From contig JAIBBU010000010.1 in NCBI GenBank assembly GCA_019694515.1, positions 35,496-99,495 of the forward strand: a stretch of 64,000 bases of DNA, in the 5' to 3' direction. Below the pieces are notes generated by a model that was not told where the DNA came from, did not search any database, and saw only the letters and a list, made by a program, of their open reading frames with translations. Positions 1,612 to 62,403 of this stretch are shown here, piece after piece; positions within the stretch are counted from its first letter, which is position 1; the number at the start of each line of letters is the position of its first letter. The position numbers were made by a program, and so were the translations under genes. This DNA is from Oligoflexia bacterium (GTDB lineage: Bacteria; Bdellovibrionota_C; UBA2361; JBGSMV01).

Positions 1612-1714
1612 GGTAGGGATTGCCCGCTTCCGCTCATGCTACGGCGTGGCAGGCTTTCGCTCCGCTCGCAATGACAAGGGTTGTCATTGCGAGCGGAGCG
1701 AAGCAATCCCTACC
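1612..1714. repeat. MITE-like palindromic repeat, copy A (12-bp perfect terminal inverted repeats GGTAGGGATTGC/GCAATCCCTACC, internal 18-bp palindrome GCTCCGCTCGCAATGACA)
   Basis: Sequence read directly. It shares the core GTCATTGCGAGCGGAGCGAAGCAATCCCTAC with the copies near 8.4, 24.9, 36.2, 57.2 and 62.3 kb. It sits between the convergent genes 428..1534 and 1786..2220. Confidence 0.85.
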
Positions 1715-1785
1715 ATCATGCCTAGCAGCTCACCGGCCGAGGATGCGATTGAAGGGGGCTTCAATCGCGGAACTTCCGTTTGCCT

Positions 1786-2220
1786 CTACTTGCTTTTCCC
1801 CGGCACCACCGCCAGCGTGCATCTCGAAGCGCATACCAGTTTGTTTTCATCATCCCGAATTTCAATCTGCCAAACCTGGGTCTTTAAACCCACATGCAGC
1901 GGTGTTGCCCGTCCGGTGATGGTGCCGTCTCTAACGGCGCGGATATGATTGGCGTTGATCTCAATTCCGACCACTGCCGTGCTCTCGTCTTTGACATTGA
2001 GCCAGCCGCCGACCGAGGCCAGACTCTCAGCCAATACCACCGAAACGCCGCCATGCAGCAGTCCAAACGGCTGCTGGCTTTTCTTGGTAACCGGCATGCG
2101 GGCTTGGACGCAGTCTTTCTTCAAAATTTGGAATTCGACTCCTAGCAGGTGATCGATCGTGCCTTTCCGTTTAGCGAGCAGCGAATCAACCCGCGGTTGA
2201 AGATCTGGCGTTGTTTCCAT
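1786..2220 (-). CDS. PaaI/YbdB-family hotdog-fold acyl-CoA thioesterase
   Basis: 144 aa. The GLLHGGVSVVLAESLAS motif is typical of PaaI-type thioesterases. Confidence 0.8.
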   Translation of the reverse strand: METTPDLQPRVDSLLAKRKGTIDHLLGVEFQILKKDCVQARMPVTKKSQQPFGLLHGGVSVVLAESLASVGGWLNVKDESTAVVGIEINANHIRAVRDGTITGRATPLHVGLKTQVWQIEIRDDENKLVCASRCTLAVVPGKSK

Positions 2221-2369
2221 GCGCCAATCTTATGTCATAAGACGCTTCAGAGGAAACTTGATTTCCTACGGTCGTTTAACTAGAACTGGTCGAGCGATAT
2301 CGGTTCGAATAGCGCGTTATCGAACCCACGGTTTGTGCTCCTAAAGTAGGAGCCTCAAGAGGAACGCCC

Positions 2370-3119
2370 ATGACAGAACAAGGCAAGGTCACATCAACTC
2401 TCGATCAGGGCATTACCACCATCACATTCAGTCATCCGCGTAGTAACTCGATGCCTGGAGCGTTGCTGCGTGCACTTGCTGCAGAGATTGATCGTGCCGG
2501 CGCGGATAAGCAGTCACGCGTAATCGTACTGTCCTCTGAGGGTGAGAAAATATTCTGTGCCGGAGCTTCTTTTGATGAGATGAAGACGATCAAGTCGGTG
2601 GAGCAGGGGCTGCAGTTCTTTTCCGGATTTGCCACGGTTATTCTCGCGATGCGGCGTTGTCCGAAATTTATCGTAGCGCGCATTCAAGGCAAAGCCGCTG
2701 GCGGCGGGGTGGGAATTCTCTCCGCTTGTGACTACGTCTTCGCGCATAGCAGCGCTTCCGTCAGACTAAGTGAACTGGCGATTGGGATCGGCCCTTTTAT
2801 TATTGGTCCCGCAGTGCAGCGGAAGGTTGGTCTGGCTGCGTTCACTGAGATGGCAATCTCGGCCGATTGGCGCGACGCTCAGTGGGCAAAGTCGCACGGC
2901 CTTTTCGTCGAATGTTTTGCAACTCACAAAGAATTGGATACTGCGGTTTCCGAATTTGCAGCCAAGCTCGCGGGCTGCTCAGCCGAGGCCATGGCAAAGT
3001 TAAAGGGAGTATTGTGGGAGGGGACTGAGCACTGGGAAGATCTGCTAATTCGCCGGGCCCGATTTACCAGCGATCTGGTTCTAAGTGACTTCGTCCAGAC
3101 CACTATTTCTAAGATGTAG
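2370..3119 (+). CDS. Enoyl-CoA hydratase/isomerase (crotonase) family protein
   Basis: 249 aa with crotonase-fold motifs (VIVLSSEGEKIFCAGASFDEM ... GKAAGGGVGI). GAGGAA lies 7 nt upstream of the ATG. Confidence 0.85.
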   Translation: MTEQGKVTSTLDQGITTITFSHPRSNSMPGALLRALAAEIDRAGADKQSRVIVLSSEGEKIFCAGASFDEMKTIKSVEQGLQFFSGFATVILAMRRCPKFIVARIQGKAAGGGVGILSACDYVFAHSSASVRLSELAIGIGPFIIGPAVQRKVGLAAFTEMAISADWRDAQWAKSHGLFVECFATHKELDTAVSEFAAKLAGCSAEAMAKLKGVLWEGTEHWEDLLIRRARFTSDLVLSDFVQTTISKM

Positions 3120-3156
3120 CTAACGGCCGGCTACCCATACCAAACTGCCTCCAGGC

Positions 3157-3174
3157 TTGATGTTAGTCATACGA
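3157..3174. promoter_or_regulatory. Candidate TetR-family operator palindrome TAGTCA-N6-TGACTA upstream of the tetR-efflux operon
   Basis: Perfect 6-bp inverted arms, about 40 bp upstream of the tetR start codon. An ATACGTAT palindrome lies just downstream. Confidence 0.3.
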
Positions 3175-3210
3175 TTGACTAAATTAACTTGATACGTATA
3201 CTCAACAAAA

Positions 3211-3915
3211 TTGTTGGTATGTACCACCATGGAAGACTCTAAGAATCCATCGAAAAGCGCGCTGATTGAAGCAGCCCAAAGGCTCTTCACTGCCAAGGCT
3301 TACGAGGCGGTCAGCACTCGAGAACTGGCGGAAACTGCCGGCGTCAATCTGGGAGCAATCCAGTATTACTTCGGCTCGAAAGCCAAGCTCTTTGCGACTG
3401 CACTGCACGGCATGATGGAAGATGGGCCGATCGCCCAGGTCTATTCGCAGCTGGAGGATGAGTTTCAGAGCGGCGCCGATGCCGCCGCAGCGCTGTGCCG
3501 TTTTGTCTCCACCTGGCTTCAGTATCTGGTGGGGCAGGAGGGGCCGCATGCCTGCCGCTGCATGTTTCGTGAGATTCTATCCCAAAACAGTGACGCCGAA
3601 CTCTTCGAGGTGATCGTAGCAGAGTTTGTGGAGAACTATTCCCGACCGCTTTCGGCGCGGCTTCAGAAAGTTATTTTGACCATTAATCCGAAACTTTCGG
3701 TGGAGGAGTTAGGTTGGACCACGCATAGCGTTATCTCTCAGTGCGTCTTTTACGTTACGCACCGGCCGTTTATCGAGCATATGCGGGCGATTAACCTTTC
3801 GGAGCCGGAAGTACTGCGAAAGATTGGGATGCATGTGGCGGGATTTTCATTGCGGGGTTTGCGTTGCGAAGAGTCCTTTATCGAGCGGGCACTCGCGCAT
3901 GGTTTTGAAGCATGA
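3211..3915 (+). CDS. TetR/AcrR-family transcriptional regulator
   Basis: The N-terminal HTH signature (EAAQRLFTAKAYEAVSTRELAETAGVNLGAIQYYFGSKAKLF) is a classic TetR N-domain. It is the first gene of an efflux operon. Confidence 0.85.
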   Translation: MLVCTTMEDSKNPSKSALIEAAQRLFTAKAYEAVSTRELAETAGVNLGAIQYYFGSKAKLFATALHGMMEDGPIAQVYSQLEDEFQSGADAAAALCRFVSTWLQYLVGQEGPHACRCMFREILSQNSDAELFEVIVAEFVENYSRPLSARLQKVILTINPKLSVEELGWTTHSVISQCVFYVTHRPFIEHMRAINLSEPEVLRKIGMHVAGFSLRGLRCEESFIERALAHGFEA

Positions 3916-3932
3916 TTTTGAAAGGGTGAAAG

Positions 3933-5105
3933 ATGACTACCTCAACTGTGCGCGAAATGGCGCTTAGAAGTCCGGAGATGAAACGTATCCTTTGGCGTGT
4001 AGGTCTGGCGCTGCTCGCCGTTTTTCTACTGCTGGGCGGGATCAAGTTCTGGCAGATCTCGGCTGCAATTGCCGGTCATGCCTCGTTCAGCCCCCCACCT
4101 GAAGCTGTGACCTCAATGCGGGCGGAGCAATCTGTATGGCAGCCTGCGCTCGAGTTGGTGGGCTCACTTAACCCGTCGCGCGGCGTGACCATTAGCGCAG
4201 AGGTCGGTGGAACCGTTGCTAGAATCGGATTCGAGTCGGGCGCGGACGTCAAGCAGGGTGATTTATTGGTGCAATTGGACACCGGGGTGGAGCAAGCTCA
4301 GCTCCGGTCTGCTGAAGCGATGCACGAACTGGCGCGAGTTAAGCTGGCCCGCGCTCAAAAATTACGGGCGCAGAGCGCTGTATCTGAACAAGAGTTAAAC
4401 GATGCGGTGGCCGAGGAGCATCGCGCGGCTGCGAGCGCTGACGAACTTAAGGCCACGATCGCCAAGAAGACGATTGTCGCGCCCTTTAGTGGACGGACCG
4501 GCATCCGGATGGTCAACGTGGGTGAATTTATAAAGGAAGGAGTGGCGGTCGTTCCGCTGCATGCTTTGAATCCGCTCTTTCTCGACTTCTCCGTTCCACA
4601 GCAGCAGGTAATGCAGTTGAAGCTGGGACAGCAGATCCATTTCGCAGTTGATGTTTATCCCGGGGCAACTTTTGAGGGCGCCGTCACCGCGATCGATCCG
4701 CAGATTGATCCCGTCACTCGCAACGTCCGAGTACAGGCTACGATTCAGAATCCAGAGGAGAAGCTGCGTCCGGGTATGTTCGCGCGCGTCAGCCTGATTC
4801 TGAACGAGAAGCAGCAAGTGTTAGCCATTCCAAGTTCCTCGATTAACTACGCGCCCTACGGTAACTCGATCTATGTGATCGAAAAAATGAAGAATCCCAA
4901 GGGCGAAGAGTATTTAGGTGTGCGGCAGCAGTTCGTGCGATTGGGCAAGAGCCAGGGAGACCTGGTGGCAGTGCTGGAAGGTTTAAAACCGGGCGAAGAG
5001 GTCGTGACCTCGGGTGTCTTTAAACTGCGGCCGGGCGCTGCTGTGCAGGTCAATAATTCGGTGATGCCCGGAAGTGATGCCGCTCCAAACCCGGCCGATA
5101 CTTAG
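3933..5105 (+). CDS. RND efflux periplasmic adaptor (membrane fusion protein, HlyD/AcrA family)
   Basis: N-terminal TM segment, then biotinyl-lipoyl and beta-barrel motifs (GVTISAEVGGTVARIGFESGADVKQGDLLVQLD). It lies immediately upstream of the RND permease. Confidence 0.85.
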   Translation: MTTSTVREMALRSPEMKRILWRVGLALLAVFLLLGGIKFWQISAAIAGHASFSPPPEAVTSMRAEQSVWQPALELVGSLNPSRGVTISAEVGGTVARIGFESGADVKQGDLLVQLDTGVEQAQLRSAEAMHELARVKLARAQKLRAQSAVSEQELNDAVAEEHRAAASADELKATIAKKTIVAPFSGRTGIRMVNVGEFIKEGVAVVPLHALNPLFLDFSVPQQQVMQLKLGQQIHFAVDVYPGATFEGAVTAIDPQIDPVTRNVRVQATIQNPEEKLRPGMFARVSLILNEKQQVLAIPSSSINYAPYGNSIYVIEKMKNPKGEEYLGVRQQFVRLGKSQGDLVAVLEGLKPGEEVVTSGVFKLRPGAAVQVNNSVMPGSDAAPNPADT

Positions 5106-5118
5106 ACCGGAGGCCAAA

Positions 5119-8100
5119 GTGAAACTTACCGATATCTTCATCCGTCGTCCGGTTCTATCGATTTGTGTGAATCTGCTGATCCTGCTGGTTGGGTACGAAT
5201 CCGTGCGGGTCTTGAATGTTCGGCAGTATCCGCGCAGTGACAACGCCGTGGCCACGGTGCGGACAGTTTACATCGGCGCAAATGCCGATTTGGTGCGCGG
5301 CTTTGTGACGACGCCGGTAGAGCGGGCGGTCGCCAGCGCTGATGGTATCGATTACCTCGAGTCCTCTAGCAAACAGGGGATGAGCGAGATCGTGGCCCAT
5401 CTCAAACTCAATTATGATACGAACGCGGCTTTGGCCCAGCTCCAATCTCGCATTGCACAGGTGCGTAATGAGCTTCCGCCTGAAGCTGAATCGCCGACGA
5501 TTAGTGTGGAGACCAGCGATAATCGCTTTGCCTCGATGTATCTTAGCTTCTACTCCAAAGAGCTGGATCAGAATGAGATTACCGATTTTCTCACCCGTGT
5601 GGTTCAACCCAAGCTCACCGCCGTAAGCGGTGTGCAAAAAGCCGATATTCTGGGCGCGCGTACCTTTGCTATGCGGATCTGGCTCAAACCTGACCGCATG
5701 GCGGCTTTAGGAGTGAGCGCCACGAATGTGCGGGAAGCGCTGTCCAGCAATAATTACCTCTCAGCGGTCGGTAATACCAAGGGATCGATGATCACGGTGA
5801 ATCTCACCGCCAATACCGATTTACGCTCCAAGGAGGAATTCGAGCGGCTGGTGATCAAGGAGTCCAACGGTACGATTATCCGCTTGAGCGACATTGCTGA
5901 TGTGGTCTTAGGTGCGGAGAGCTACGACGAAGAAGTACGGTTTGACGGTGAGAAGGCCACCTTCATGGGAGTATGGGTGCTGCCCAACGCCAACTCGCTC
6001 GATGTGATTCAGCGCGTGCGGGCTGAAATGCCTGGAATTCAAGCGATCTTGCCGGCCGGCATGAAGGCCGGAATTCCCTACGACGCCACTAAGTATATTA
6101 ACGACTCGATTCATGAGGTCATCAAGACCCTGATCGAAACCATTCTGATCGTGATCTTGGTAATTTATCTATTTATCGGCTCGCTGCGTTCCGTGCTGGT
6201 GCCGATCGTTGCGATTCCGCTCTCGCTAGTCGGTGCTGCGGGAGTGATGCTGCTATTCGGCTTTACCATCAATCTTCTGACCCTGCTGGCGATTGTGCTG
6301 GCCGTGGGTTTGGTAGTGGATGACGCGATCGTAATGCTGGAAAACATCGAACGACACGTTTCCGAGGGCATGGCGCCTTTTGATGCGGCATTGAAGGGCG
6401 CGCGCGAGCTGGTGGGGCCGACCATTGCCATGACTATTACTCTGGCTGCGGTATATGCTCCGATCGGATTGCAGGGGGGACTGACCGGCACCCTTTTCCG
6501 GGAGTTCGCCTTTACACTAGCGGGCGCCGTGGTGATCTCCGGCATCGTGGCCTTGACCCTTTCGCCGATGATGTCATCCAAGCTTTTGCACACCAGTGAA
6601 AATCCTGCTCGCATGGAGCTGGTGTTAAATCGATTTTTTGAACGGCTGAGTGCGCGCTACGATAGGCTCTTGGCCCAGACCCTCTCGTATCGCCCGGCGG
6701 TGTTATTAGTAGCGGTATTTGTGATGGTGCTGCTGCCGATTTTTTACATGTTCTCGGTAAAGGAGTTAGCACCGCGCGAAGATCAAGGGGTGGTTTTTAG
6801 TATCGTGCAGGCGGCCCCCAATTCCTCGCTCGATCAAACGCTGCTCTTTACCGATAAGGTCAATCAGGCCTTCACGGCGCTTCCAGAGTTCGCCAATTCG
6901 TTTCAACTAATCGGTCCAAGTTTCGGGTTCTCGGGAGTAGTGTTGAAGCCGTGGAGCCAAAGATCCCGCACAGCGCAGGAGATTGAGGGCGAGATGTGGG
7001 GCAGTATGTCCTCGATCGCCGGAATCCGAGTAATCGTCACTACACCACCGCCGCTCCCCGGCGGCAGTGACTTTCCAGTCGAGTTCATTATCGCTTCGAC
7101 GGCAGAACCTCACCAAACCTTCGAGGTAGCACAGAAGCTGGTGATGAGCGCCTTCGAGAGCGGCATGTTTATGTTCGCCGATACCGATCTGAAATACGAT
7201 CAGCCGCAAACCGAGATCGTAATTGACCGGGATAAAGTCGCCATGTTGGGGCTGAACTTGCAGCAGATCGGAGCGGATCTGAGCGGGATGCTGGGAGGAG
7301 GATATGTTAATCGCTTCAATATACAGGGGCGGAGCTATAAGGTTATTCCCCAGGTTAAACGCAACGAGCGCTTGAACCCAGAACAGCTGATGAGCTTCTA
7401 TGTGAGCGGACCGGAGGGCAAACTTGTCCCGGTGTCGACCTTCGCTGCATTGAAGAACACCGTGGAACCCCGGCAGCTAAATCGCTTTCAGCAATTGAAC
7501 TCGGCTAAGATTCAGGGCGCGCCGGTACCCGGAGTAACGATCGATCAGGCCCTCCAGTTCCTCGAAAAGAAAGCGGCCGAGTTGTTGCCTCAGGGCTATG
7601 TGATTGACTATGCCGGCGAGTCCAGGCAGCTGCGTACTGAAGGAAATGCCCTGATTACCACCCTATTTCTGGCGTTGTTGGTGATCTTCTTGGTGCTGGC
7701 TGCGCAGTTTGAGAGCTTCCGTGATCCCTTCATCGTGTTGGCGGGCTCTGTGCCGCTGGCCCTTTCGGGTGCTTTGCTTTTCACCTTCCTTGGATTCACG
7801 ACGATTAATATTTATACCCAAGTAGGATTGATAACCTTGGTGGGGCTGGTCGCAAAGAACGGAATTCTAATTGTGGAGTTTGCGAATAAACTTCAGGAAC
7901 GCGGAAAATCAAAACTTGAGGCAGTGCAGGAAGCCGCAGCTACCCGCTTGCGTCCGATTTTGATGACCTCGGTCGCCACGGTAGCCGGCCATTTTCCGCT
8001 GATCTTGGCAACTGGGGCTGGAGCTGGCGCGAGAAACAGTATTGGTATTGTGCTTTGTACCGGTATGACTGTGGGAACGATCTTTACCTTGTTTGTAGTG

Positions 8101-8223
8101 CCCAGCATTTACATGTTAGTGGCGCGCGATTTTGCACGGCGGCGGACGGAACACTTGTCTGGCAGCGGCGTGCACACGAATGGTGCACCATTTCGAGAAG
8201 AGCTGGCGGGAGAGGCGCGGTAG
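5119..8223 (+). CDS. RND multidrug efflux permease (AcrB/HAE1 family); GTG start at 5119 preferred over the track ATG at 5074
   Basis: About 1035 aa with 12-TM RND architecture. It begins VKLTDIFIRRPVLS, which matches the MxxTxFFIxRPV RND start. GGAGG lies 5 nt upstream of the GTG. No outer-membrane factor gene follows. Confidence 0.9.
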   Translation: MKLTDIFIRRPVLSICVNLLILLVGYESVRVLNVRQYPRSDNAVATVRTVYIGANADLVRGFVTTPVERAVASADGIDYLESSSKQGMSEIVAHLKLNYDTNAALAQLQSRIAQVRNELPPEAESPTISVETSDNRFASMYLSFYSKELDQNEITDFLTRVVQPKLTAVSGVQKADILGARTFAMRIWLKPDRMAALGVSATNVREALSSNNYLSAVGNTKGSMITVNLTANTDLRSKEEFERLVIKESNGTIIRLSDIADVVLGAESYDEEVRFDGEKATFMGVWVLPNANSLDVIQRVRAEMPGIQAILPAGMKAGIPYDATKYINDSIHEVIKTLIETILIVILVIYLFIGSLRSVLVPIVAIPLSLVGAAGVMLLFGFTINLLTLLAIVLAVGLVVDDAIVMLENIERHVSEGMAPFDAALKGARELVGPTIAMTITLAAVYAPIGLQGGLTGTLFREFAFTLAGAVVISGIVALTLSPMMSSKLLHTSENPARMELVLNRFFERLSARYDRLLAQTLSYRPAVLLVAVFVMVLLPIFYMFSVKELAPREDQGVVFSIVQAAPNSSLDQTLLFTDKVNQAFTALPEFANSFQLIGPSFGFSGVVLKPWSQRSRTAQEIEGEMWGSMSSIAGIRVIVTTPPPLPGGSDFPVEFIIASTAEPHQTFEVAQKLVMSAFESGMFMFADTDLKYDQPQTEIVIDRDKVAMLGLNLQQIGADLSGMLGGGYVNRFNIQGRSYKVIPQVKRNERLNPEQLMSFYVSGPEGKLVPVSTFAALKNTVEPRQLNRFQQLNSAKIQGAPVPGVTIDQALQFLEKKAAELLPQGYVIDYAGESRQLRTEGNALITTLFLALLVIFLVLAAQFESFRDPFIVLAGSVPLALSGALLFTFLGFTTINIYTQVGLITLVGLVAKNGILIVEFANKLQERGKSKLEAVQEAAATRLRPILMTSVATVAGHFPLILATGAGAGARNSIGIVLCTGMTVGTIFTLFVVPSIYMLVARDFARRRTEHLSGSGVHTNGAPFREELAGEAR

Positions 8224-8376
8224 GTACGGGCTGTCTGACCAGCAGTTCGCGTTTGCTTGGCGCTCGATCGTATTAATTGCGGCTTCCGACTGATTATTCT
8301 CCGGGCTAATAGCGCATTTTTGAGGGAGGCTGCTCTTTTAGCGCTGGCTTAGGCAAACATACCTCGTGCCTTAGCG

Positions 8377-8446
8377 TTAGGGATTGCTTCGCTTCGCTCG
8401 CAATGACAGTGCTTTGTCATTGCGAGCGAAGCGAAGCAATCCCTAA
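8377..8446. repeat. MITE-like palindromic repeat, copy B (perfect 32-bp inverted arms TTAGGGATTGCTTCGCTTCGCTCGCAATGACA around a 6-nt centre)
   Basis: Read directly. It lies downstream of the RND operon, between convergent genes. Confidence 0.85.
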
Positions 8447-8504
8447 GGTTAAAGCAGGATGCAATCAATCCAATGTCGATTGAGAAGGGGCGCTCCGCCA
8501 GATC

Positions 8505-8999
8505 CTAGCAGGACGAACTATTATAGCACCGATTTGGATCAGGGATGGCAATACAGGTCTTGTCTCCCGCCTTGACGTAAACCGCTTTGCTCTTGGTATT
8601 GCGCTGCGCAGTGGTAGCAACAGATCCGGGGCTCTTCTTGTCGCCGCATCCCCAGCCGCCATAATAACGGGCGGCGTATGCCGATCCAGCAGGAGAATAG
8701 GACCCTAGCTTGTGCACTAAATTTCCGGCCTTGTCATATACTCCGAGACACGAAAATCGAGGCCGGGCATTTCCCCGCATAAAGATCAGCGAGGTGCTGT
8801 TCTTACGCGGATCGCCGCTGGAAAGATGATCGGAGGCCTTGGACTTCCAGATCTCGCCCCCCACCAGGTTTCGCACTACGGGGCAGACTGAGGAAAAGGA
8901 GCGAGTTGCTCTAAGCAGGGTCAGCTTCCGGTTCAGCGCCTGAGCTGACGGTGCCAGAAACATAACCAACATAGCCACGACCACAATTCGTTTTAACAT
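8505..8999 (-). CDS. Small secreted Cys-containing hypothetical protein (start moved to the internal Met that precedes the signal peptide MLKRIVVVAMLVMFLAPSAQA)
   Basis: The ORF 8505..9158 carries a clear Sec signal peptide beginning at residue 54. The corresponding ATG is at 8999. Confidence 0.45.
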   Translation of the reverse strand: MLKRIVVVAMLVMFLAPSAQALNRKLTLLRATRSFSSVCPVVRNLVGGEIWKSKASDHLSSGDPRKNSTSLIFMRGNARPRFSCLGVYDKAGNLVHKLGSYSPAGSAYAARYYGGWGCGDKKSPGSVATTAQRNTKSKAVYVKAGDKTCIAIPDPNRCYNSSSC

Positions 9000-9182
9000 T
9001 ACATATCTCCGTTTCGAGCAGTCCAAGCCGATTAACCCATTCTTAGCATGCACCAGCACGATCAACCAGTCAGGTTGCTGCCCTTGCTTAAGCCAAAAAA
9101 GTGCGCCAAAATCTGCAAACTTCCGGGGGCGAGACCCCGAGCTTCTATTCGCCCTCATTTACCGCAAAGGGGGGCACGCGCC

Positions 9183-10694: not shown

Positions 10695-11092
10695 TGCCGC
10701 CAACTCGCCAGTTCATCCAAAATTGTGCGGCGCTCCAGGGACGCCTTAGGGTAGGTGAGTTGGAGCCGGGGGTGCGTGTCGCCCGCGGCTTTGCGGATCT
10801 GGGATTTGAACTCTTTATGATCTTAAGTCCGCACAAGATGGTCTCACTTTATACCGGGAAGAGTGTCGAAATTGCGGAGACGGAGCATGCTCAGTTGGTG
10901 CCGGTGCCGTCGCCTGACGAACTGGTTGATTTAATCTCCCGTAACAATTTCGATATCGATGGCCTGCATTTTATTGAGCAGCGGTATTGGCGACTGACAT
11001 TAAGAGATGTGAAAAGCGGTGCTCAGCAGCCGTTCGAGGCGGCGACTCTCGAGGAGGTGCTGCTAAAGGGGCTGGTGTATTCTCTAGGGTGA
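10694..11092 (+). CDS. Hypothetical protein, translationally coupled (TAATG overlap) to the IMPDH-family gene
   Basis: 132-aa ORF whose start overlaps the upstream stop. No recognised domain. The true start could be an internal Met (MILSPHKMVSLYTG...). Confidence 0.4.
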   Translation: MPPTRQFIQNCAALQGRLRVGELEPGVRVARGFADLGFELFMILSPHKMVSLYTGKSVEIAETEHAQLVPVPSPDELVDLISRNNFDIDGLHFIEQRYWRLTLRDVKSGAQQPFEAATLEEVLLKGLVYSLG

Positions 11093-11096
11093 ATAG

Positions 11097-12418: not shown

Positions 12419-12473
12419 CATGTCGGCGCTGGTTAAGATACTCGAGCCATCTCAATTGTTAAGGTAGTTGCAT

Positions 12474-13187: not shown

Positions 13188-13344
13188 GATTGCTGTATGT
13201 AACGGGAAGGCGAGGCGCTCTTCAGACCCGCTCTAGGTCAGCAATTAAATCGACATCCCTAGAGTTTTCATAACAATGCACAGCCGCACCAAAATTAGCC
13301 GCTCGATCCCGAGTGGTATCTACCGGCATCGGGGCTTGTGGCGC

Positions 13345-15078: not shown

Positions 15079-15267
15079 TATACCCCACTATCCAGACCGC
15101 AGTGAAATGAACAATTTCGCCGCACCTTGATCAGGTGCAGAAGGAGCAAAGTAGGTTGTCCCGCTGCAGATACACAGGTACGCGCAACTCAGCGGATTGC
15201 TTTGACTCGTCTACATATACCTTGACTTCCACGGGGTTTGGGTTCTCAATAACTAAAGAGATACGTT

Positions 15268-53675: not shown

Positions 53676-56156
53676 ATGGCAGCTAAGAAGAAGACTCAGA
53701 AGCGGGGACTTAAGAAGAAGGGCGCTCAGGAGCGTTCTAACGGTAGGGCCGGGCGGGTGTTGGGCGAGGCCGAGATCTCGCTTCCCGCAACTCTTCCAGT
53801 TCTGCCGGCCCGAGATCTGGTCGCTTTCCCATCGGTCATGATGTCGCTCTATGTTGGCAGGCCCTCGAGTGTAAAAGCGGTCGAAAATGCTAATGATAGC
53901 GACAAGCTAATCTTGATCCTGGCCCAGCGTGATGTGGAGACCGAGGAACCGCAGCCTAAAGATCTATTTAAGATTGGTGTGGTGGCGCACATCGTGCGAT
54001 CGCTGCAGGTGCCGGACGGGCGTCTAAAGGTTCTGATGCAGGGTATCGTACGCGCGCGCATCAACAAACTCGAGCGTGAGGGCAATTATTACGTCGCTTC
54101 GATCGAGCCGTTGCCTGCTTCGGATAAGATCAAGATTACTGCGGAAGACGAAGTTATCGTCAACCGCATCCGGGAAAATTTGCAGGTTTTAGTGCAGTAC
54201 GAACATTTGCCCGAAGAGATGCTGCTGGTAACCGAGGAGGTCCAGGAGCCGGGGATGTTGTCGGATGTTATTCTGGCGCACTATAAGCTGGACCACTTCC
54301 AGGCTCAGAACGCCTTAGAAGAGCTTGATCCGCTAAAACGCTTGCGCTTAACCGACAAAATTATTACCGACGATCTAAATCAGTTCTTGGTTTCGGAGCG
54401 CATTAAAGACAAGACTCAGCATGAAATGGCCAAGGGCCAGCGGGAATATTATCTGCGGGAGCAGATTAAGCAGATCCAGCGGGAACTCGGTGAGAATGAA
54501 GCCAGTCCGGACGATCTGGGACAGCTCAAGCAGGCGCTCAATACCGCAGATCTACCGGAGTATGCGCTGGCCGAAGCTAAAAAGCAGCTAACCCGCCTAG
54601 AACGCATGTCGATGGAGTCTTCCGAATATGCGCTGCTTAGAACCTACCTAGAGTGGATCTTGGATCTGCCCTGGTCGAAGCGCACCAAGGATCGCATCGA
54701 GCTAAAATTAGCGCAGCGTATCTTAGATGAAGATCATTACGGACTGGAAAAGGTCAAAGATCGCATCCTGGAATATCTGAGCGTCAGAAAATTGAACCCT
54801 GATTCCAAGGGGCCGATTCTCTGTTTTGTCGGTCCTCCGGGAGTTGGCAAGACTTCGCTTGGCAAATCGATTGCGCGAGCATTGAATCGTAAGTTTTACC
54901 GTATGTCGCTGGGCGGGATGCGTGATGAGGCCGAAATTCGTGGGCATCGGCGCACCTACGTAGGGGCACTGCCCGGCCGCATTCTGCAGGGCATGAAACA
55001 GGCCGGCAGCATTAATCCGGTTTTCGTATTGGATGAGTTGGATAAGGTCGGCGCGGATTTTCGCGGTGACCCCGCTTCGGCGCTGCTGGAGGTTTTAGAC
55101 CCGCAGCAGAACAAGGAGTTTACCGATCACTATCTTAACATGAGCTACGATCTCTCTGAGGTGATGTTCGTGGCAACTTCGAATACGATCGATACGATTC
55201 CGGAAGCGCTGCTTGATCGGCTGGAGGTAATCTACATCTCCGGCTATACCACCGAGGAAAAGGTCAAGATTGCGGAGCGTTTCCTAATTCCGCGCCAGAT
55301 GACGGAGAATGGAATTCAAAAGAAAGATGCAGTCGTGGTTACCGACAAAGCGCTGCTGCTGCTGATCGAACGCTATACTCGTGAAGCCGGCGTAAGAAAC
55401 CTGGAGCGTGAGATCGGGTCGCTGTGCCGGAAGCTCGCCCGGGAACAGGCGGAGAAAGGCAAACTCACCAAGAAAATTACCGAAGAAGCTGTGCTGCGGC
55501 TCCTCGGCCCGACCAAGTATGATCCCGAGACGACCGAATCGGGCGATGCGATTGGCCTGGTGCGCGGTTTGGCCTGGACGGCAGTCGGCGGAGAGGTTAT
55601 GCCGGTGGAAGCCTCGGTGGCGAAAGGCAGCGGCACGCTTAATCTGACCGGCCAGCTAGGCAGCGTCATGCAAGAGTCCGCTCAGGCAGCGCTCTTTTTC
55701 GCCCGTTCCAACGCTGAGATGCTGGGACTGGATACTGGTTTTCATCAGAAACTCGATATCCACATTCATGTTCCGGGGGGCGCTACTCCCAAAGATGGAC
55801 CATCTGCGGGAATCACGATTGTCACGGCGCTGGTTTCGGCGCTCTCGAAGCGTAAAGTTTCGCGTGACTACGCCTTGACCGGAGAGGTGACGTTGCGGGG
55901 GAATGTGCTGCCTATCGGCGGTTTAAAGGAAAAAGCACTTGCAGCTTTGAGATACGGGATTAATAAGGTCATCATCCCCTACGAAAACATCAAAGACTTG
56001 GAAGAGATTCCAAAGGAGCAGCGCGACAAAATTAAGTTCATTCCAGTAAAGCACGTTAGCGAAGTGCTGAAGATGGTGTTGATCGGCGACGCGCCGAAGA
56101 AGCAGATCAAGCGCAGCGCTAAACGGCGCATCAAGCCGATTCGTGCGAATGTATGA
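53676..56156 (+). CDS. lon: ATP-dependent protease Lon (LonA)
   Basis: Lon N-domain (LPVLPARDLVAFPSVMMSLYVGRPSS), AAA+ Walker A GPPGVGKTS, and protease domain DGPSAGITIVTALVSAL with the catalytic Ser and Lys. AGGAG precedes the ATG at 53676. Confidence 0.95.
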   Translation: MAAKKKTQKRGLKKKGAQERSNGRAGRVLGEAEISLPATLPVLPARDLVAFPSVMMSLYVGRPSSVKAVENANDSDKLILILAQRDVETEEPQPKDLFKIGVVAHIVRSLQVPDGRLKVLMQGIVRARINKLEREGNYYVASIEPLPASDKIKITAEDEVIVNRIRENLQVLVQYEHLPEEMLLVTEEVQEPGMLSDVILAHYKLDHFQAQNALEELDPLKRLRLTDKIITDDLNQFLVSERIKDKTQHEMAKGQREYYLREQIKQIQRELGENEASPDDLGQLKQALNTADLPEYALAEAKKQLTRLERMSMESSEYALLRTYLEWILDLPWSKRTKDRIELKLAQRILDEDHYGLEKVKDRILEYLSVRKLNPDSKGPILCFVGPPGVGKTSLGKSIARALNRKFYRMSLGGMRDEAEIRGHRRTYVGALPGRILQGMKQAGSINPVFVLDELDKVGADFRGDPASALLEVLDPQQNKEFTDHYLNMSYDLSEVMFVATSNTIDTIPEALLDRLEVIYISGYTTEEKVKIAERFLIPRQMTENGIQKKDAVVVTDKALLLLIERYTREAGVRNLEREIGSLCRKLAREQAEKGKLTKKITEEAVLRLLGPTKYDPETTESGDAIGLVRGLAWTAVGGEVMPVEASVAKGSGTLNLTGQLGSVMQESAQAALFFARSNAEMLGLDTGFHQKLDIHIHVPGGATPKDGPSAGITIVTALVSALSKRKVSRDYALTGEVTLRGNVLPIGGLKEKALAALRYGINKVIIPYENIKDLEEIPKEQRDKIKFIPVKHVSEVLKMVLIGDAPKKQIKRSAKRRIKPIRANV

Positions 56157-56179
56157 CCAGGCCCGGAGCTCGGCGCTTA

Positions 56180-57166
56180 ATGCCTAGGTCGCTATTAGCG
56201 CTGCTCCTCGCTGGAACGCTTGTGGCTGCTTCGCTGCAAGCCGAACCGCAGATCTGTGTTTACACCAATGCTAAGGGCGGGGTCGAACAGACCAACGATC
56301 TGAATCAGATCCCGGCGCGCTTCAAATCAACGGCCAAGTGTTTCACCCCTAAACAGATCAGCGGGAAGATGGAGAAGCCTGCTGAGATCGCCCTGAAGGG
56401 CAATGTGCGGGAGGAGCATATGGGGTCTTCTTTGGGCCCGATCAATTTACGCTGGCCGAGAAAGGTCGAAGTGCTGTTCGGTCGCACACCGCAGCGCGCC
56501 GTGGCGGAAGCGGCTACCGCCGTCAGCCGGGCATTAAAGCACGGCGGATTCTCGGTTGAGCTGCAACGCCTCAGTTTGCCCTGGGAAATTGTGTTCATGG
56601 ACGAAGAGCTGCCTGAAAAGCAGATTCCGGCTTATCTCGTGAGCAATTGCCATCCGGCCTGGATGACTCCGCCCGCTAATATTTATGTGGTGGGTCAGCG
56701 GGTAGTCGCAGGCTGCGGCGATAAGACGCGTCCATCAACCTCTGTAGCCGACGGTCAGTTGGCGCAGGTTCTGATTCACGAAATGGGACACGCCGTTGAG
56801 TATCAGTTGCTGCAAGGAAAGGCCACCCAAGAGCGCATGCTGGCAGAGGGGTTTGCCTGCTGGTTCGAACAGTATGCTTCCGATTTTGCGGCGGTTTTAT
56901 CGAAGGGGCAGGTTGAGCGGCAATACATGACCTGGGCTAAAGAGGCGCTGCGACAGGCGCCTTTCGGAGGGGCGTTTAGTCCCACTGCGCACGAGTATGC
57001 TAAGGCCTCGCTGCTTTTTCATGCGCTCGTTAATCGCGGGGGAATTAGCCGCCTGAGTGATGTGTATGGACGCATGGCAGAGGAGCGGCTGGATTTTTAT
57101 GCTGCTGTGAAACGCACCCTAGGCTGGGATTTGGCAAAACTTTACGCCGAAGCTGCGCGGTTCTAG
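56180..57166 (+). CDS. Secreted putative gluzincin metallopeptidase (HEXXH...E: VLIHEMGHAVEY...EGFACWFE), family unknown
   Basis: Signal peptide MPRSLLALLLAGTLVAASLQA. HEMGH, plus a Glu 22 residues downstream. It lies 24 nt after the lon stop. Confidence 0.55.
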   Translation: MPRSLLALLLAGTLVAASLQAEPQICVYTNAKGGVEQTNDLNQIPARFKSTAKCFTPKQISGKMEKPAEIALKGNVREEHMGSSLGPINLRWPRKVEVLFGRTPQRAVAEAATAVSRALKHGGFSVELQRLSLPWEIVFMDEELPEKQIPAYLVSNCHPAWMTPPANIYVVGQRVVAGCGDKTRPSTSVADGQLAQVLIHEMGHAVEYQLLQGKATQERMLAEGFACWFEQYASDFAAVLSKGQVERQYMTWAKEALRQAPFGGAFSPTAHEYAKASLLFHALVNRGGISRLSDVYGRMAEERLDFYAAVKRTLGWDLAKLYAEAARF

Positions 57167-57169
57167 GGG

Positions 57170-57300
57170 CAATATTTCGAGAACGGAATTCGTCTCCTTG
57201 CGCGCGGTTCTGTCATTGCTGTACGAGTTATGCAATTCGAGGACAGATTTTCTGTCATTGCGAACCCTAGCTTGGCGAGGGTGAAGCAATTCCTAACATT
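57170..57300. repeat. MITE-like repeat, degenerate copy F (CGAATTCGTCTCCTTGCGCGC and TGTCATTGC modules)
   Basis: Read directly. A further partial copy G (CCGCTCATGCTACGGCG...CGCAATGACAGC) lies at about 57437..57500. Confidence 0.6.
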
Positions 57301-57581
57301 AGGTCGATGTAGGCTTTGTCTCCAGATAAACGTAAAAGTTTCTTACGAGCATTCAGACTACGGCGATTGACTGGAAAATGTGCAGAAAATTCTCCTAACT
57401 TTTTCAGTCCAGAGACCATTACGACTTAAAGTTAGGGTTTCTCCGCCTCCGCTCATGCTACGGCGAGGCGGGCATTCGCTCCTATCGCAATGACAGCTCA
57501 ACGCGCACTTGCAGGAACTTCATCAACAGCGCAGCAATGCTGTCCTCGAATTACGTAACCCGTACCTTTTCCAGCCTCGTC

Positions 57582-58472
57582 CTAAGATCCAAAAAGGCGC
57601 GCAACGGATTTAAGATCGATATCTTCAGTGCTGCGCAGCGAGGATCCCACATTCCGGACTCTGGTGCGCCACGCAGCATCATCAAGGTTGGTTCGCAGGT
57701 TGCTCAAAAATTCTCTCTCATCTTGGTAAAGCACTTTGTCCCGATCTGGGCCGCTGTAGAGCTGCCGCATTTCATTAATCGCGAGGCGTCGTAAATTCTC
57801 TTCAGACCAGCTTTGGGGGGAGGGTATTTTTCTTTGATGGGGCCATTCCCAACCGGTCTTGTGGATGGAGATCTCCATGCGGCCACCCGGATCAGGACGG
57901 AACTGAATGTGATAGTCGCCAATTTCAGCGTCCGCACAGGCCAATTCGCAGCTCGAAGTTAAGTGTGCTTGTTCAACATATCTACCCGCTTGATTAATGA
58001 CCGTATAACTTGAAAATTTCCACATGCGCTCCACTCTCTGCATCACCTGCTGATCTAGACTCAAAACCTGGTCAATCTTTCGCCCGAGTCTGGAGAGATT
58101 TTCTTCCTTTAGGTATGCGTGGATGCGGCCTGCAACGAGACGTTTTACCAAAGGATTGCTCGCATCCCATGATTCGAGCGCCACTGCAACATGCAAGTCA
58201 TCAACATAGGCAATCTCTCCTCCCAACAGCTTTGTTAAAGCTGGGGAATAGCTGTGATTCGCTCCGCTGGATAGACCGATTGACTGCATGAGCTGCCTGG
58301 CCAGACCGTCATATCCTGTACTTTGAGCCGATTCGGCGGAGCGAGCATTCGCTGTAGCCGCGTTTTTTATGCCGGGCAGGGTCGCGGCGTGCAGGGCGGG
58401 GATCTCGGCGCCGCTAAGTAGAGTGCCGGTGGTTTGAAGCACCAAATTCAATTTACGAAAAAGGTCGCGCAT
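57582..58472 (-). CDS. Hypothetical protein (no recognised domain)
   Basis: Start uncertain: the ATG at 58472 has GGAGA 10 nt upstream, and the track ORF extends to 58508. Confidence 0.5.
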   Translation of the reverse strand: MRDLFRKLNLVLQTTGTLLSGAEIPALHAATLPGIKNAATANARSAESAQSTGYDGLARQLMQSIGLSSGANHSYSPALTKLLGGEIAYVDDLHVAVALESWDASNPLVKRLVAGRIHAYLKEENLSRLGRKIDQVLSLDQQVMQRVERMWKFSSYTVINQAGRYVEQAHLTSSCELACADAEIGDYHIQFRPDPGGRMEISIHKTGWEWPHQRKIPSPQSWSEENLRRLAINEMRQLYSGPDRDKVLYQDEREFLSNLRTNLDDAAWRTRVRNVGSSLRSTEDIDLKSVARLFGS

Positions 58473-58600
58473 ATGGCTGCAATCTCCAAGGGTAACTGCC
58501 TCTCTCAAGTTATGCGGCGATGGCGGGCGATGTGCGCCAGGTTCCTGCTCGCATTCAACTAACTTATTGATTGTGTTCGAAAACGGTCGCGCCAGCGGGC

Positions 58601-60118: not shown

Positions 60119-61042
60119 GATCGGTAGATAACTAATGCCCGAGTATCTCAGATTTGAGTCAGCCTTGGGAGAGCGCTATTATAGAAGCGCAGTATTATAG
60201 AAGCGCAGTCGCGGTGAGCAGTGTCGATTAGAAGTGCCGATGAGCAACGCGCATTGCTGATCATCGCACAATTTGAACACAAGAAGGCTTCAGCCGCTGC
60301 GTTGATCGCTCTTGGAGCGATGAACGAGGCAGGTTGGGATGCAGGTTTGTCGAGCTTGGCCAGCTCTAAATCCGAAAGGAGATTTAAATTAGGCCTTTTT
60401 TGCGTCTCGATTGCTGGTCACAAACACTTGCTTGGGCAGGAGATCATAACTGCCCAACGGCCACCTTTCCCACTGGAGTCTTAGGCAGTGAGCCATCGGA
60501 GGGTTCATTGAGTACCGGGGAATCTCGGCTTGCCGAGAGCGTGTTGACTTCAGGATCGCTGAGAACTTCAGCACTGGAAACGGGTGATACGGCAGAGATC
60601 CGAATTGATGGATCGCTGCTGAAGCTGCGTCTGGTCTCGGCTGAGAACAGCGTGCTCACCCGGCGAAAGAAGGAGACCGGTAAGGAAGTGCGATGCTGCC
60701 TGTTGATGCCCTTCGACACCAAGGACCACAAGCGTAGCGGAATGCTGGGTCCTTACCATGCGAGCTTCGTTCGCGCCGGTCGGGAACTGACGGGTGAAGT
60801 GAAGCTGCACGGAGTCCAGGTCTTCTGGCGAAAGGTGTTCCTGGACGAGTCCGAGTAGCAGCAGCAGTAGTTTGACCGGCAGCATGGGATGGGACAGGTT
60901 TTTCGCCTTCAAGGGAAAGAAACCCCAACCTGCCTCATCCCTTTCGATCAAGAGATCGCCGGGAGAGAGGTTCCCAACGCAGCACTTCAATGATCTCGTG
61001 CTCCCGGTTCCCCCTAAGCAAGATCCTCTAAGCTAACTCAAA

Positions 61043-61594
61043 TCAATTCGACGATCCCTTGACCCCCGCTTTAGCCAACAGTTCACCCAGCGATACCGGC
61101 GACTTCTTAGCCTGTTCGGCAGACTCGGCGGTATGCGATTCCCCGCAGTGTACACAGCTGCCATCTTGATTGAGCTGGGGATGCCAAAATTGATCCATCG
61201 CTAAGATCAGGCTCTGTTCCAATGTATCTCTCAAATCCAGCCCGTCACCTTCAAAGAATACGATGCCGATGTCATCCAAGCTCTCTGGCGATTGACCGAA
61301 CTCCTTGGAGTGGATCTGCTGCAGCACATAGTCGGCTGACACTTCAATATGTCTTGGTACGTCGCGGGCGCAAAGTGAGCAGCCTTGGGTGAAGGTGCCT
61401 TTGATTTTGCCCTTAGTATCCGCACCGCTTGGTGTTCGCGTAACGTGCAGCGACACTTTTGGGGCAGCGGTGAAGCGTATATCGGTCTCGTGTCCTTCCT
61501 GCATACGCTGGTTCAACGCCTCGAAATCCAGGGTATCGTCAATGGCCAGCCCCTCGGGCCCGATGTCGGCAATTCGAATCTTCATGGCAATCAA
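61043..61594 (-). CDS. yceD: YceD/DUF177 family protein (23S rRNA accumulation protein-like)
   Basis: CxxC ... CxxC pairs (GCSLCARD ... SCVHCGES) and an acidic C-terminal region. The overall pattern matches YceD. Confidence 0.7.
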   Translation of the reverse strand: MIAMKIRIADIGPEGLAIDDTLDFEALNQRMQEGHETDIRFTAAPKVSLHVTRTPSGADTKGKIKGTFTQGCSLCARDVPRHIEVSADYVLQQIHSKEFGQSPESLDDIGIVFFEGDGLDLRDTLEQSLILAMDQFWHPQLNQDGSCVHCGESHTAESAEQAKKSPVSLGELLAKAGVKGSSN

Positions 61595-61733
61595 GAATAA
61601 TCAGGGCAATCTGAAAAAGTTCGACTTTTTCGGTAAAAACCCCTATATATTTGTCCGGAAACTTTTAGGCTGAATGCTCGAAAAAGTAAATGTGCCTGTC
61701 AATTTATCGTGCTTGAAGAGGTAGTAGGAAATT

Positions 61734-62207
61734 ATGGCTATTAACAAGGTAATGCTGCTTGGAAATCTCGGTAAGGATCCCGAGCTTCGCTACACCAACC
61801 AACAGTTCCCCGTCGCAAAATTCAGCCTCGCTACTGGTGAGCGCCGCAAGGACGCCTCAGGAAATTGGGGTGAACATACGGAATGGCATAATATTGTAGC
61901 TTTCGGAAAGACAGCAGAGCTTTGCTCGCAATATCTTAAGAAGGGTCGCCAGGTCTTTATCGAAGGACGGATTCAAACCCGTAAGTGGCAAGATAAGGAG
62001 GGCAAGGATCGCTGGACTACCGAGATAATTGCCAATAACGTGCAGTTTGTGGGTAATAAGCCCGGAGCAGGCACCGATAGCGGTGCTAGCTACACCGTCG
62101 AGACTACCAACGCCGGAAATGAACTGCTGGATTCGCTGCCGAGTGCTGACCAGGTCAGCGCCGCCGCCGAACCTCCGGCGTTTGATGACGACGATATTCC
62201 GTTTTAG
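61734..62207 (+). CDS. ssb: Single-stranded DNA-binding protein SSB
   Basis: OB-fold N-terminus (MAINKVMLLGNLGKDPELRYT) and a C-terminal acidic tip DDDIPF. Confidence 0.95.
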   Translation: MAINKVMLLGNLGKDPELRYTNQQFPVAKFSLATGERRKDASGNWGEHTEWHNIVAFGKTAELCSQYLKKGRQVFIEGRIQTRKWQDKEGKDRWTTEIIANNVQFVGNKPGAGTDSGASYTVETTNAGNELLDSLPSADQVSAAAEPPAFDDDDIPF

Positions 62208-62314
62208 CCTGGGTGCCCGTCTTGTAGGCGGGTCGGTACGATCGGTCGGATCGGCTTGGCGCCTTCCAGTGGTGCCAAGCTCCTTCAATACGCTCCTTGG
62301 TATATGTAAATAGT

Positions 62315-62403
62315 GCCATAGAGGTAGGGATTGCTTCGCTTTGCTCGCAATGACGATTCGGTGTCATTGCGAGCAAAGCGAAGCAATCCCTACCTCTATG
62401 ACA
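62315..62403. repeat. MITE-like repeat, copy E (about 38-bp inverted arms CATAGAGGTAGGGATTGCTTCGCTTTGCTCGCAATGAC around an 8-nt centre)
   Basis: Read directly. It lies between convergent ssb and the NUDIX gene. Confidence 0.85.

Follow-up and report, generated by a model that had tools for sequence, protein, structure and literature searches.

Two published descriptions of hairpin repeats come closest to the elements reported here. The Ssn-related motifs (SRM/NTS) are oriented hairpin repeats of 20-50 nt that flank, on either side, single-domain GIY-YIG (ssn) genes of approximately 94 amino acids, whose products belong to the family cd10448 (Chenal 2025, PMC11893778). They have a 5′ HGTC tag, a stem starting from AT and a C-Y tail, and occur in hundreds of usually intergenic copies in many phyla. 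SsnA is a GIY-YIG single-strand DNA nuclease which is inactive on RNA and has these motifs as its targets; the cognate Ssn cleaves the motif as single-strand DNA and on one strand only (PMC11893778). The association of GIY-YIG genes with hairpin units is already known, having been published in 2025, and according to Chenal et al. it is still to be elucidated what Ssn nucleases and their motifs do biologically in organisms other than Neisseria (PMC11893778). The second description concerns the CGTC-tagged REP superfamily, which takes in Neisseria dRS3 and Rickettsia RPE-4/6 (Di Nocera 2013, PMC3733652). Its members carry a YGTC tag and a stem whose first pairs are A-T and T-A, followed by a 3-nt tail that stays unpaired; they are intergenic, often downstream of genes. 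Di Nocera et al. did not find any RAYT flanked by CGTC repeats, and REP-like repeats generally sit between convergent and co-directional genes (PMC3733652).

More distant are the REP/REPIN-RAYT and BIME elements of E. coli and Pseudomonas, which are inverted doublets and mosaics of hairpins with co-varying arms and without target-site duplication. They are located at the 3′ ends of genes, where effects as terminator or stabiliser have been proposed. Here, we describe a family of hairpin repeats in a window of 64,000 nucleotides from an Oligoflexia bacterium (contig JAIBBU010000010.1).

Repeat units and copies in the window

A 28-nt core (GGGATTGCTTCGCTCCGCTCGCAATGAC) was matched eight times in the whole window with up to three mismatches but not once in shuffled sequences, which excludes a chance origin of the repeats. 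With a covariance model run over the whole window with its filters off, nine significant units were detected in six intergenic regions (1684-1708, 8382-8406, 8417-8441, 24923-24947, 36183-36207, 36311-36335, 57255-57291, 62329-62353 and 62364-62388). A tenth significant unit was not found by this structure-aware search, the next best hit in the window having an E-value of 0.15. Rfam gave no match at the gathering threshold across the window, and an E-value search with copy D returned only one chance lncRNA match. A literature search for the repeat by sequence string revealed nothing relevant.

Each arm is a conserved hairpin of about 30 nt, composed of a YGTC tag, a 5-bp basal stem (ATTGC/GCAAT), a GA/GAA internal loop, a covarying distal stem-loop of variable length (2-8 bp, with a 3-nt loop in the window units) and a CYC tail. 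Every clean unit of the window carries the tag TGTC. One fold architecture is common to 130 distinct units. In alignment A2 of the units, 89.5% of the cells were paired compared to 23-48% in slid controls, and compensatory changes were seen at five of the six distal pairs, with a score that none of 500 shuffles reached. For the basal pairing of ATTGC with GCAAT, 98.5% of the aligned cells were paired. Loop variants are the same in both arms of a dimer but different from dimer to dimer. All three dimers of the window are tail-to-tail (TT) homodimers with their tags inside. The sequence GGTAG directly precedes GGATTGC in five of eight window arms, which places GTAG on the outer side of the dimers. 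Target-site duplications are absent from the window copies.

The copies differ considerably in composition; A, B, D and E are listed without strand. Copy A (1601..1727) has a composite left arm, consisting of a degenerate and a partial unit (1608-1677), and a right arm formed by the clean unit TGTCATTGCGAGCGGAGCGAAGCAATCCC (1682-1711), the TGTC tags pointing inward. Copies B (8366..8457) and E (62313..62403) are tail-to-tail dimers. In B, a minus-strand unit (8380-8408) and a plus-strand unit (8415-8443) are separated by a 6-nt centre, both arms contain the GAA loop variant, and the arms are 91% complementary. In E (minus-strand unit 62327-62355, plus-strand unit 62362-62390), both arms contain the rare AAA loop variant, and folding gave a perfect stem of 39-41 bp. 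Copy D (36167..36351) possesses perfect inverted arms of 43 nt (43/43) and comprises a minus-strand unit (36181-36209), two partial tandem units (36210-36263), a 36-nt spacer module (36273-36308) and a plus-strand unit (36309-36337). Copy C (24906..24990, minus strand) is a single intact unit (24921-24949, minus) followed by a partial module like the left arm of A, without an inverted partner. Copy F (57175..57300, plus strand) starts with a spacer module (57175-57210) that is 79% identical to the one of copy D, followed by a degenerate unit (approximately 57211-57240) and a plus-strand unit (57253-57293) with a long covarying distal stem (ACCCT/AGGGT). In copy G (57427..57565, minus strand), a composite module sharing 84% identity with the left arm of A is joined by a degenerate spacer module in inverted orientation. 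Judging from the inverted ends at 57221-57254 and 57532-57565, F and G seem to be opposite ends of a single mosaic. In addition, a decayed relic of the A-left/G composite module was detected at 16606..16653 (plus strand) in the convergent spacer between two CBS-domain genes (local alignment score 41, shuffle maximum 27). The description of the repeats as long perfect palindromes, made in the sequence-only reading, therefore holds for D, the only copy with fully perfect arms, and for the perfect stem of E, but not for B with its imperfect complementarity, A with one composite arm, the single unit C or the degenerate mosaics F and G. Recognising the units accounts for spurious open reading frames such as 1556..1948 (encoding ...CHCERSEAIP) and also for breaks in metagenome assemblies.

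Relationship to known repeat systems

The window repeats agree with the Ssn-related motifs (Chenal 2025) as well as with the CGTC-tagged REP superfamily (Di Nocera 2013), though they deviate from each. The stem of SRM/NTS is continuous (ATTCCCGCG), whereas the present unit consists of ATTGC, the GA/GAA internal loop and a variable distal helix. Furthermore, the window dimers have their tags inside and there is no ssn gene in the window. The published SRM pattern HGTCWYN(0-2)YYVSBRHN(0-5)WNVSBRGN(0-2)RNCYNB did not match anywhere in the window; three representative units failed while the NTS control passed, and ATTGCGAG-type units thus lie outside the published search pattern. Among the CGTC-tagged repeats, the group CGTC-3 is closest, sharing GTCATTGC...GCAATCC with the unit. 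In CGTC REPs, however, 8-9 bp form an uninterrupted stem topped by a loop of 4-5 nt, while the present unit has 5 bp, an internal loop, another 2-8 bp and a terminal loop of 3 nt or variable size. The tails also differ, CCC or CTC in the present units against the CCA consensus of CGTC REPs, and so does the orientation, since CGTC REPs are mostly head-to-head (HH) dimers and those of the window belong to the rare TT type.

The resemblance to REP/BIME elements proposed earlier is upheld, as the units fit the YGTC-tagged REP superfamily. Classical REP/REPIN elements are set apart by their GTAG tag and their Y1 (HUH) transposase, in contrast to the YGTC tag and the GIY-YIG nuclease. Correia elements of Neisseria and ERIC-type MITEs are likewise repeated, palindromic and intergenic, fold at the RNA level and can affect the stability of transcripts, but they have DDE-type terminal repeats with TA duplications, which the window repeats do not show. 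Integron attC sites were rejected because the units do not contain R′/R″ GTTRRRY core sites in the right orientation, and CRISPR for want of regular arrays with unique spacers.

Units in other genomes and their association with GIY-YIG genes

The exact 28-mer was found in more than 115 stretches of about 14 phyla among the matches listed. For 302 units from other genomes, the tag was TGTC in 58% and CGTC in 26%, and the tails were CCC or CTC. Their dimers, mostly heterodimers, were tags-outside (HH) in 95 cases, tags-inside (TT) in 22 and tandem (HT) in 15; this predominance of tags-outside heterodimers is shared with the CGTC-tagged REPs. A search with the lineage-specific pattern GGTAGGGATTGCTTCGCT yielded 24 metagenome loci only. 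A search of plasmids gave just two Novosphingobium megaplasmids, neither of which is annotated where the match lies. Samples of one locus differed by the gain and loss of units.

At nine of nine independent loci in other genomes, a GIY-YIG gene of 95 amino acids lies inside a tags-outside dimer of inverted units, one unit ending 18-24 nt before the ATG and the inverted one lying just past the stop codon. This corresponds to the NTS-ssnA-NTS layout. The flanked proteins matched Pfam PF01541 only and no specific NCBIfam model, and their sole relative in the PDB is the distant UPF0213 protein BH0048 (E = 0.001). Within the window, there is no GIY-YIG/ssn, RAYT or transposase gene, and a decayed GIY-YIG coding sequence was not found inside the window elements. 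Since an ssn gene is lacking in the window, the nuclease is linked to these repeats through their family only.

Placement relative to genes

The genes beside the copies were verified by Pfam and codon score. Copy A lies between 428..1534(+) and a 4HBT thioesterase gene (1786..2220(-)), copy B between acrB (5074..8223(+)) and a signal-peptide ORF (8505..8999(-)), and copy C, which was missing from the earlier list, between a His_Phos_1 gene (23954..24676(+)) and 25210..27129(-). Copy D is flanked by genes for an FmdB zinc ribbon (35754..36083(+)) and RecO (36427..37005(-)), copies F and G by a HEMGH protein gene (56153..57166(+)) and 57582..58508(-), and copy E by genes for SSB (61734..62207(+)) and NUDIX (62621..63199(-)). 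The hairpins are 9-230 nt away from the stop codons. The window contains 55 gene junctions, 13 convergent, 14 divergent and 28 co-directional. All six element-bearing junctions are convergent (hypergeometric P = 5.9e-5), and P was still about 0.001 when each junction was weighted by the length of its intergenic region, not counting the elements. The preference for convergent gene ends asserted in the sequence-only reading is therefore real within the window. Counting the relic, seven convergent spacers are occupied, and the six other convergent junctions have no element.

In other genomes, by contrast, for which the gene calls are rough, the convergent enrichment was weak (21% versus 15% of junctions, p = 0.15). 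Among 139 loci from these genomes, units in co-directional and divergent spacers were almost as frequent. Most REP families, and this family in other genomes, are less strict in their placement than the window, where six element-bearing junctions are convergent and none is co-directional. This strictness could point to genuine selection for some role at the ends of convergent genes. Tolerance is the likelier cause, however, as long perfect palindromes would survive only where promoters and operons stay unbroken. Tolerance predicts convergent placement equally well, and placement alone cannot separate the two. A genome in which the units occur strictly at convergent junctions is hence a good test bed for distinguishing mere survival from a shaping of 3′ ends.

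RNA hairpins and transcription termination

The predicted RNA hairpins of the elements reach -70 to -110 kcal/mol on both strands (z-scores -10 to -19), in agreement with the earlier expectation of very stable structures in RNA from either strand. Like intrinsic bidirectional terminators, they are GC-containing hairpins between two convergent stop codons which can be read from both strands. The similarity does not extend to the flanks, which lack an A-tract or U-tract, nor to the stems, which are 32-44 bp long compared to 5-12 bp in intrinsic terminators, and the elements are repeated and mobile-looking. On neither strand is the hairpin followed by a U-tract; the 12-nt tails contain 1-6 T with no run longer than four, and none of the elements was flagged by the terminator scan. 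Canonical terminator-like sites were not above chance in positions 1..20000 (21 observed, 21.3 expected), and obvious terminators were not found in the other convergent spacers of the window.

Perfect stems of 40 bp are expected RNase III substrates. In E. coli, REP325 is both a partly Rho-dependent terminator and a stabiliser, and a REP between convergent genes goes along with higher expression of the two (bioRxiv 10.64898/2026.03.23.713779). Given the stability of the RNA hairpins on both strands, a REP-like effect at 3′ ends, be it attenuation or stabilisation, is plausible by analogy.

Origin and possible function of the repeats

We consider it reasonably probable that these elements represent a variant of YGTC-tagged hairpin repeats (CGTC-type REPs/Ssn-related motifs) which is spread or maintained by Ssn and tolerated between convergent genes, any effect on 3′ ends being a by-product. 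An Ssn-family nuclease encoded outside the window would recognise the hairpins in single-strand DNA and spread or maintain the units, in parallel to REP and RAYT. In this lineage, the units occur as tail-to-tail palindromic dimers and mosaics. Near-perfect palindromes of 90-190 bp may be tolerated only where promoters and operon read-through are not disturbed, which would explain why units are present only between convergent genes. There, transcripts of both flanking genes probably include the elements at their 3′ ends, and the resulting hairpins could, like REPs, reduce read-through, stop 3′ exonucleases or recruit RNase III. Such an action would be an effect of the hairpins rather than a demonstrated selected function.

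That the palindromes are instead selected bidirectional terminators or 3′-end stabilisers for convergent gene pairs appears unlikely. The exclusively convergent junctions (six, or seven with the relic), the stable hairpins on both strands, the chance-level frequency of canonical terminator-like sites, the other convergent spacers without obvious terminators and the findings on E. coli REPs are all in accordance with this idea. On the other hand, the hairpins lack U-tracts, perfect stems of 40 bp would be expected to serve as RNase III substrates, and six other convergent junctions manage with no element at all. The copies vary in make-up and show decay, C consisting of one unit, F and G being degenerate mosaics and another copy being a relic. 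Rates in the co-directional and divergent spacers of other genomes are similar, and the observed placement could also result from tolerance. As the family is moreover tied to a nuclease that acts on single-strand DNA and is inactive on RNA (PMC11893778), the bidirectional terminator function that the sequence-only reading had deduced from placement is not supported. A more far-reaching proposal, which must be regarded as distinctly unlikely, is that the ATTGC-GA/GAA hairpin is a major class of Ssn targets outside the SRM pattern, reshaped here into tags-inside perfect palindromes that are kept specifically at convergent gene ends and there hinder transcription or RNA decay in both directions without needing a U-tract, a domesticated second function for the target of a single-strand DNA nuclease. 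A motif class missed by the SRM pattern yet identical across phyla would enlarge the Ssn system and supply new enzyme/target pairs for single-strand DNA tools.

Two further origins have to be weighed against spreading by Ssn. Classical REPINs, GTAG-tagged doublets moved by a single-copy RAYT (IS200-like Y1 transposase) elsewhere in the genome, would account for the GTAG on the outer side of the dimers, for the co-variation of the arms of each dimer and for the missing target-site duplications. Beyond this lineage, however, GTAG is not conserved while YGTC at the other end is, and the TAG of some ssn loci is nothing more than the GIY-YIG stop codon. The units surround GIY-YIG genes at all nine loci, no Y1 transposase matched by at least two members recurred among 109 genes adjoining units, and CGTC repeats did not flank any RAYT in the survey of Di Nocera et al. 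(PMC3733652), so that a REPIN origin is very improbable. Even less credible, and extremely unlikely, are MITEs derived from an insertion sequence with a DDE transposase, or a chance pattern. The copies are dispersed and their arms look like terminal inverted repeats, but these arms are themselves structured hairpins covarying across phyla, target-site duplications are absent, a related IS was found neither in the window nor in the other loci, and chance is contradicted by the shuffled sequences. Apart from these considerations, the outer GCCATAGAGGTAG flank is suggestive of a leftover of the 3′ end of ssn (...TGG TAG), a very short stretch.

Structure and occurrence of the repeat units

The repeats are built of units, hairpin arms of approximately 30 nt, in which a TGTC tag is followed by a basal stem (ATTGC/GCAAT), an internal loop (5′ GA / 3′ GAA), a distal stem-loop and a CCC or CTC tail. 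The window units represent the minimal form with a distal part GC-GNA-GC (e.g., GCGAAGC). In other genomes, 130 distinct units from 139 loci revealed one common fold, whose distal stems comprise 2–8 bp and vary in sequence. When 13 units, each 33 nt long, were aligned without gaps, paired cells amounted to 89.5%, compared to 23–48% with the partners slid; two-sided changes were detected at five of the six distal pairs and none of 500 shuffles matched the observed covariation score. Compensating variants also occur in the basal stem (ATGGC/GCCAT, GTTGC/GCAAC).

Repeat and pattern searches revealed a 28-nt core, GGGATTGCTTCGCTCCGCTCGCAATGAC, which has eight matches in the window at three or fewer mismatches and none in shuffles, and degenerate relatives are located at 1601–1680 and 57175–57565. 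A covariance model trained on units from other genomes and applied to the full window with its filters disabled detected nine significant units and none beyond, all of them intergenic and spread over six regions. Copies B (8366–8457), D (36167–36351), E (62313–62403) and, partly, A (1601–1727) are inverted dimers with TGTC tags face to face, copy C (24906–24990) is one single unit, and F (57175–57300) and G (57427–57565) are mosaics. Copy D includes a 36-nt spacer module, also present in F, and two partial units in tandem. The loop variant is common to both arms within a dimer and differs among dimers (B, GAA; D, GGA; E, AAA), suggesting that copying or correction acts on the dimer as a whole. 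Target-site duplications were not seen at the window copies. A second component that recurs in the mosaics is the spacer module (36273–36308 and 57175–57210, with an inverted, degenerate version at 57495–57524), which possesses its own small hairpin (GACGAAATTCGTC) and always lies directly against a TGTC tag.

Relation to CGTC-tagged REPs and Ssn-related motifs

Among the matches listed, more than 115 stretches contain the exact 28-mer (Y permitted at two positions); they represent approximately 14 phyla including Cyanobacteria, Chloroflexota, Alpha-, Gamma- and Deltaproteobacteria, Bacteroidota, Planctomycetota, Nitrospirota, Nitrospinota, Acidobacteriota, Gemmatimonadota, Patescibacteria, Melainabacteria, Ignavibacteria and others. 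Rfam contains no family matching the repeats. The likeness to REP elements proposed by the sequence-only reading proved to be right, since the units agree with features of the CGTC-tagged REPs of Di Nocera et al. (2013), in which the tag is often TGTC, A-T pairs open the stem and a 3-nt tail is present (PMC3733652). This group takes in Neisseria dRS3 and Rickettsia RPE-4/6, most of its copies are tags-outside heterodimers and no dedicated transposase is known (PMC3733652). Its CGTC-3 family (translated VIAGLDPAIH; GTCATTGCCGGG...CCCGGCAATCC) has unit ends in common with the window repeats (PMC3733652). Chenal et al. (2025) described SsnA, a 94-aa single-domain GIY-YIG protein (cd10448) that binds the NTS hairpin (CGTCATTCCCGCGMAVGCGGGAATCYRG) and cleaves single-strand DNA immediately upstream of this site; it acts on only one of the strands and is inactive on double-strand DNA and RNA (PMC11893778). 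Ssn-related motifs border ssn genes on both sides in many phyla, giving an IS-like NTS-ssn-NTS layout, and Ssn is encoded in 81% of the genomes with more than 200 motifs; the system modulates transformation in Neisseria (PMC11893778).

Both descriptions agree with the statistics of 302 units from other genomes, of which 58% carry a TGTC and 26% a CGTC tag and whose dimers, heterodimers for the most part, are tags-outside in 95 cases, tags-inside in 22 and tandem in 15. Clustering of the ORFs of all fetched loci revealed a GIY-YIG protein of approximately 95 aa as the sole recurrent neighbour related to mobile elements. Its gene lies within a tags-outside dimer at nine independent loci, among them L112, L126, L131 and those encoding the GIY-YIG proteins P0013, P0038, P0044, P0111 and P0116. 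The upstream unit stops 18–24 nt 5′ of the ATG and an inverted unit follows the stop codon, in most loci at a distance of no more than 34 nt; at the P0116 locus, the inverted unit is 134 nt downstream and is preceded by a unit in the same orientation. At some loci, the TAG of the stop codon runs directly into GGATTGC. The protein belongs to a very large family, in which members from different phyla share approximately 80% identity. Neither a GIY-YIG gene nor, by Pfam/NCBIfam checks of the genes, a transposase was detected in the window.

The window elements are a variant of an already described system, namely CGTC-type REPs or Ssn-related motifs. They deviate from the published motifs in that the stem is broken by a conserved GA/GAA loop, the unit fails the published SRM search pattern and the dimers are of the rare tags-inside type. 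As the Ssn cut lies 5′ to the tag, it would fall beyond the borders of a tags-outside dimer or ssn cassette, in the manner of IS ends, and within the central spacer of the tags-inside window dimers.

Samples of one locus differ in how many additional unit pairs follow the GIY-YIG gene, hence the arrays are dynamic. At one ssn locus from different samples (L142–L149), these pairs differ in number and type and the upstream unit of L149 is replaced, indicating that units are rapidly gained, lost or recombined. In the approximately 20 nt that separate the upstream unit from the ssn start codon, a TATAAT-like box is often present (GGTATAATGTGAACGATG, GGTATAAATG, CTATAAATAAATG; L163 1203–1220, L173 1484–1500, L155 1982–2000), hinting at a leaderless or unit-coupled promoter. 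The tags-outside dimers of other genomes mostly combine a minimal GC-GAA-GC unit with a partner having a long distal stem, and their spacers end in complementary CYC...GRG. In some Chloroflexota MAGs, units are arranged in tandem, head to tail or alternating, at periods of 34–37 nt and 83 nt (L009 1824–2030, L057 2658–2851, L076 307–460), and these arrays produce long spurious ORFs.

Placement at convergent gene ends

Window genes were called by a self-trained codon score and nearly all checked against Pfam or NCBIfam. The 55 junctions comprise 13 convergent, 14 divergent and 28 co-directional ones. All six element-bearing regions have convergent flanks: an unknown protein and a 4HBT thioesterase (A), AcrB and a signal-peptide ORF (B), a histidine phosphatase and a 639-aa ORF (C), an FmdB zinc ribbon and RecO (D), a HEMGH protein and a 308-aa ORF (F and G), and SSB and NUDIX (E). 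The preference claimed by the sequence-only reading was thus borne out (P = 5.9e-5 by counts; P = 0.001 weighted by intergenic length, elements removed); the flanks of its listed copies were convergent, but copy C had been left out. A seventh convergent spacer (16547–16727) contains a decayed relic of the composite module of copies A and G. These P values and the relic show that the placement is real and non-random in this window. It is also stricter than usual, as none of the 28 co-directional junctions bears an element; published REPs are located mainly between unidirectional and convergent ORFs (PMC3733652).

The same reading regarded the repeats as bidirectional terminators. The very stable RNA hairpins it expected from both strands were confirmed in predicted folds (uninterrupted stems of 32–44 bp, −70 to −110 kcal/mol), the frequency of canonical terminator-like sites in the first 20 kb of the window does not exceed chance, and its element-free convergent spacers lack obvious terminators. 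In E. coli, REP325 acts as an mRNA stabiliser and as a terminator that is partly Rho-dependent, and the presence of REPs between convergent genes is correlated with raised expression of both genes (bioRxiv 10.64898/2026.03.23.713779). However, no U-tract follows the hairpin at the window copies, which are heterogeneous and decaying, six convergent junctions of the window are element-free, and the characterised partner enzyme SsnA does not act on RNA (PMC11893778). In other genomes, according to rough gene calls, units occupy 21% of the convergent, 14% of the co-directional and 17% of the divergent junctions (convergent versus remaining, odds ratio 1.6, p = 0.15), and tags-inside dimers lie at five convergent, nine co-directional and three divergent junctions.

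Terminator function of the window repeats is therefore unsupported. Purifying selection against disruption of promoters or operons would also predict placement at convergent ends, and tolerance is the most likely explanation. The empty co-directional junctions fit long perfect hairpins being polar on transcripts; such polarity would be an effect, not necessarily a function. By analogy, a REP-like 3′-end effect is possible.

Other features of the window

RecO of the window shares 100% identity with a protein of a MAG labelled Oligoflexia bacterium. A metagenome contig of the same organism (L141, ENA scaffold_10250) ends inside copy D at approximately 36280, a typical assembly break at a repeat; the palindromes thus fragment short-read assemblies. 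ORFs running through repeats (1556–1948(+), 35933–36271(−), 24917–25156(+); 79–130 aa, peptides such as ...RSARNDKGCHCERSEAIP...) have negative codon scores and are likely mis-annotation traps. A RiPP metallophore-like cluster (27253–29294) consists of a 129-aa precursor that has repeated KCGE.KCG motifs, an NCBIfam HvfA-family domain and 36-nt tandem repeats (27468–27635), an MbnB/TglH/ChrH enzyme (27682–28530) and a DUF2063 partner (28506–29294). Cumulative GC skew climbs steadily over 1–64000 and the + strand carries approximately two thirds of the genes, which places the window inside one replichore, without origin or terminus.
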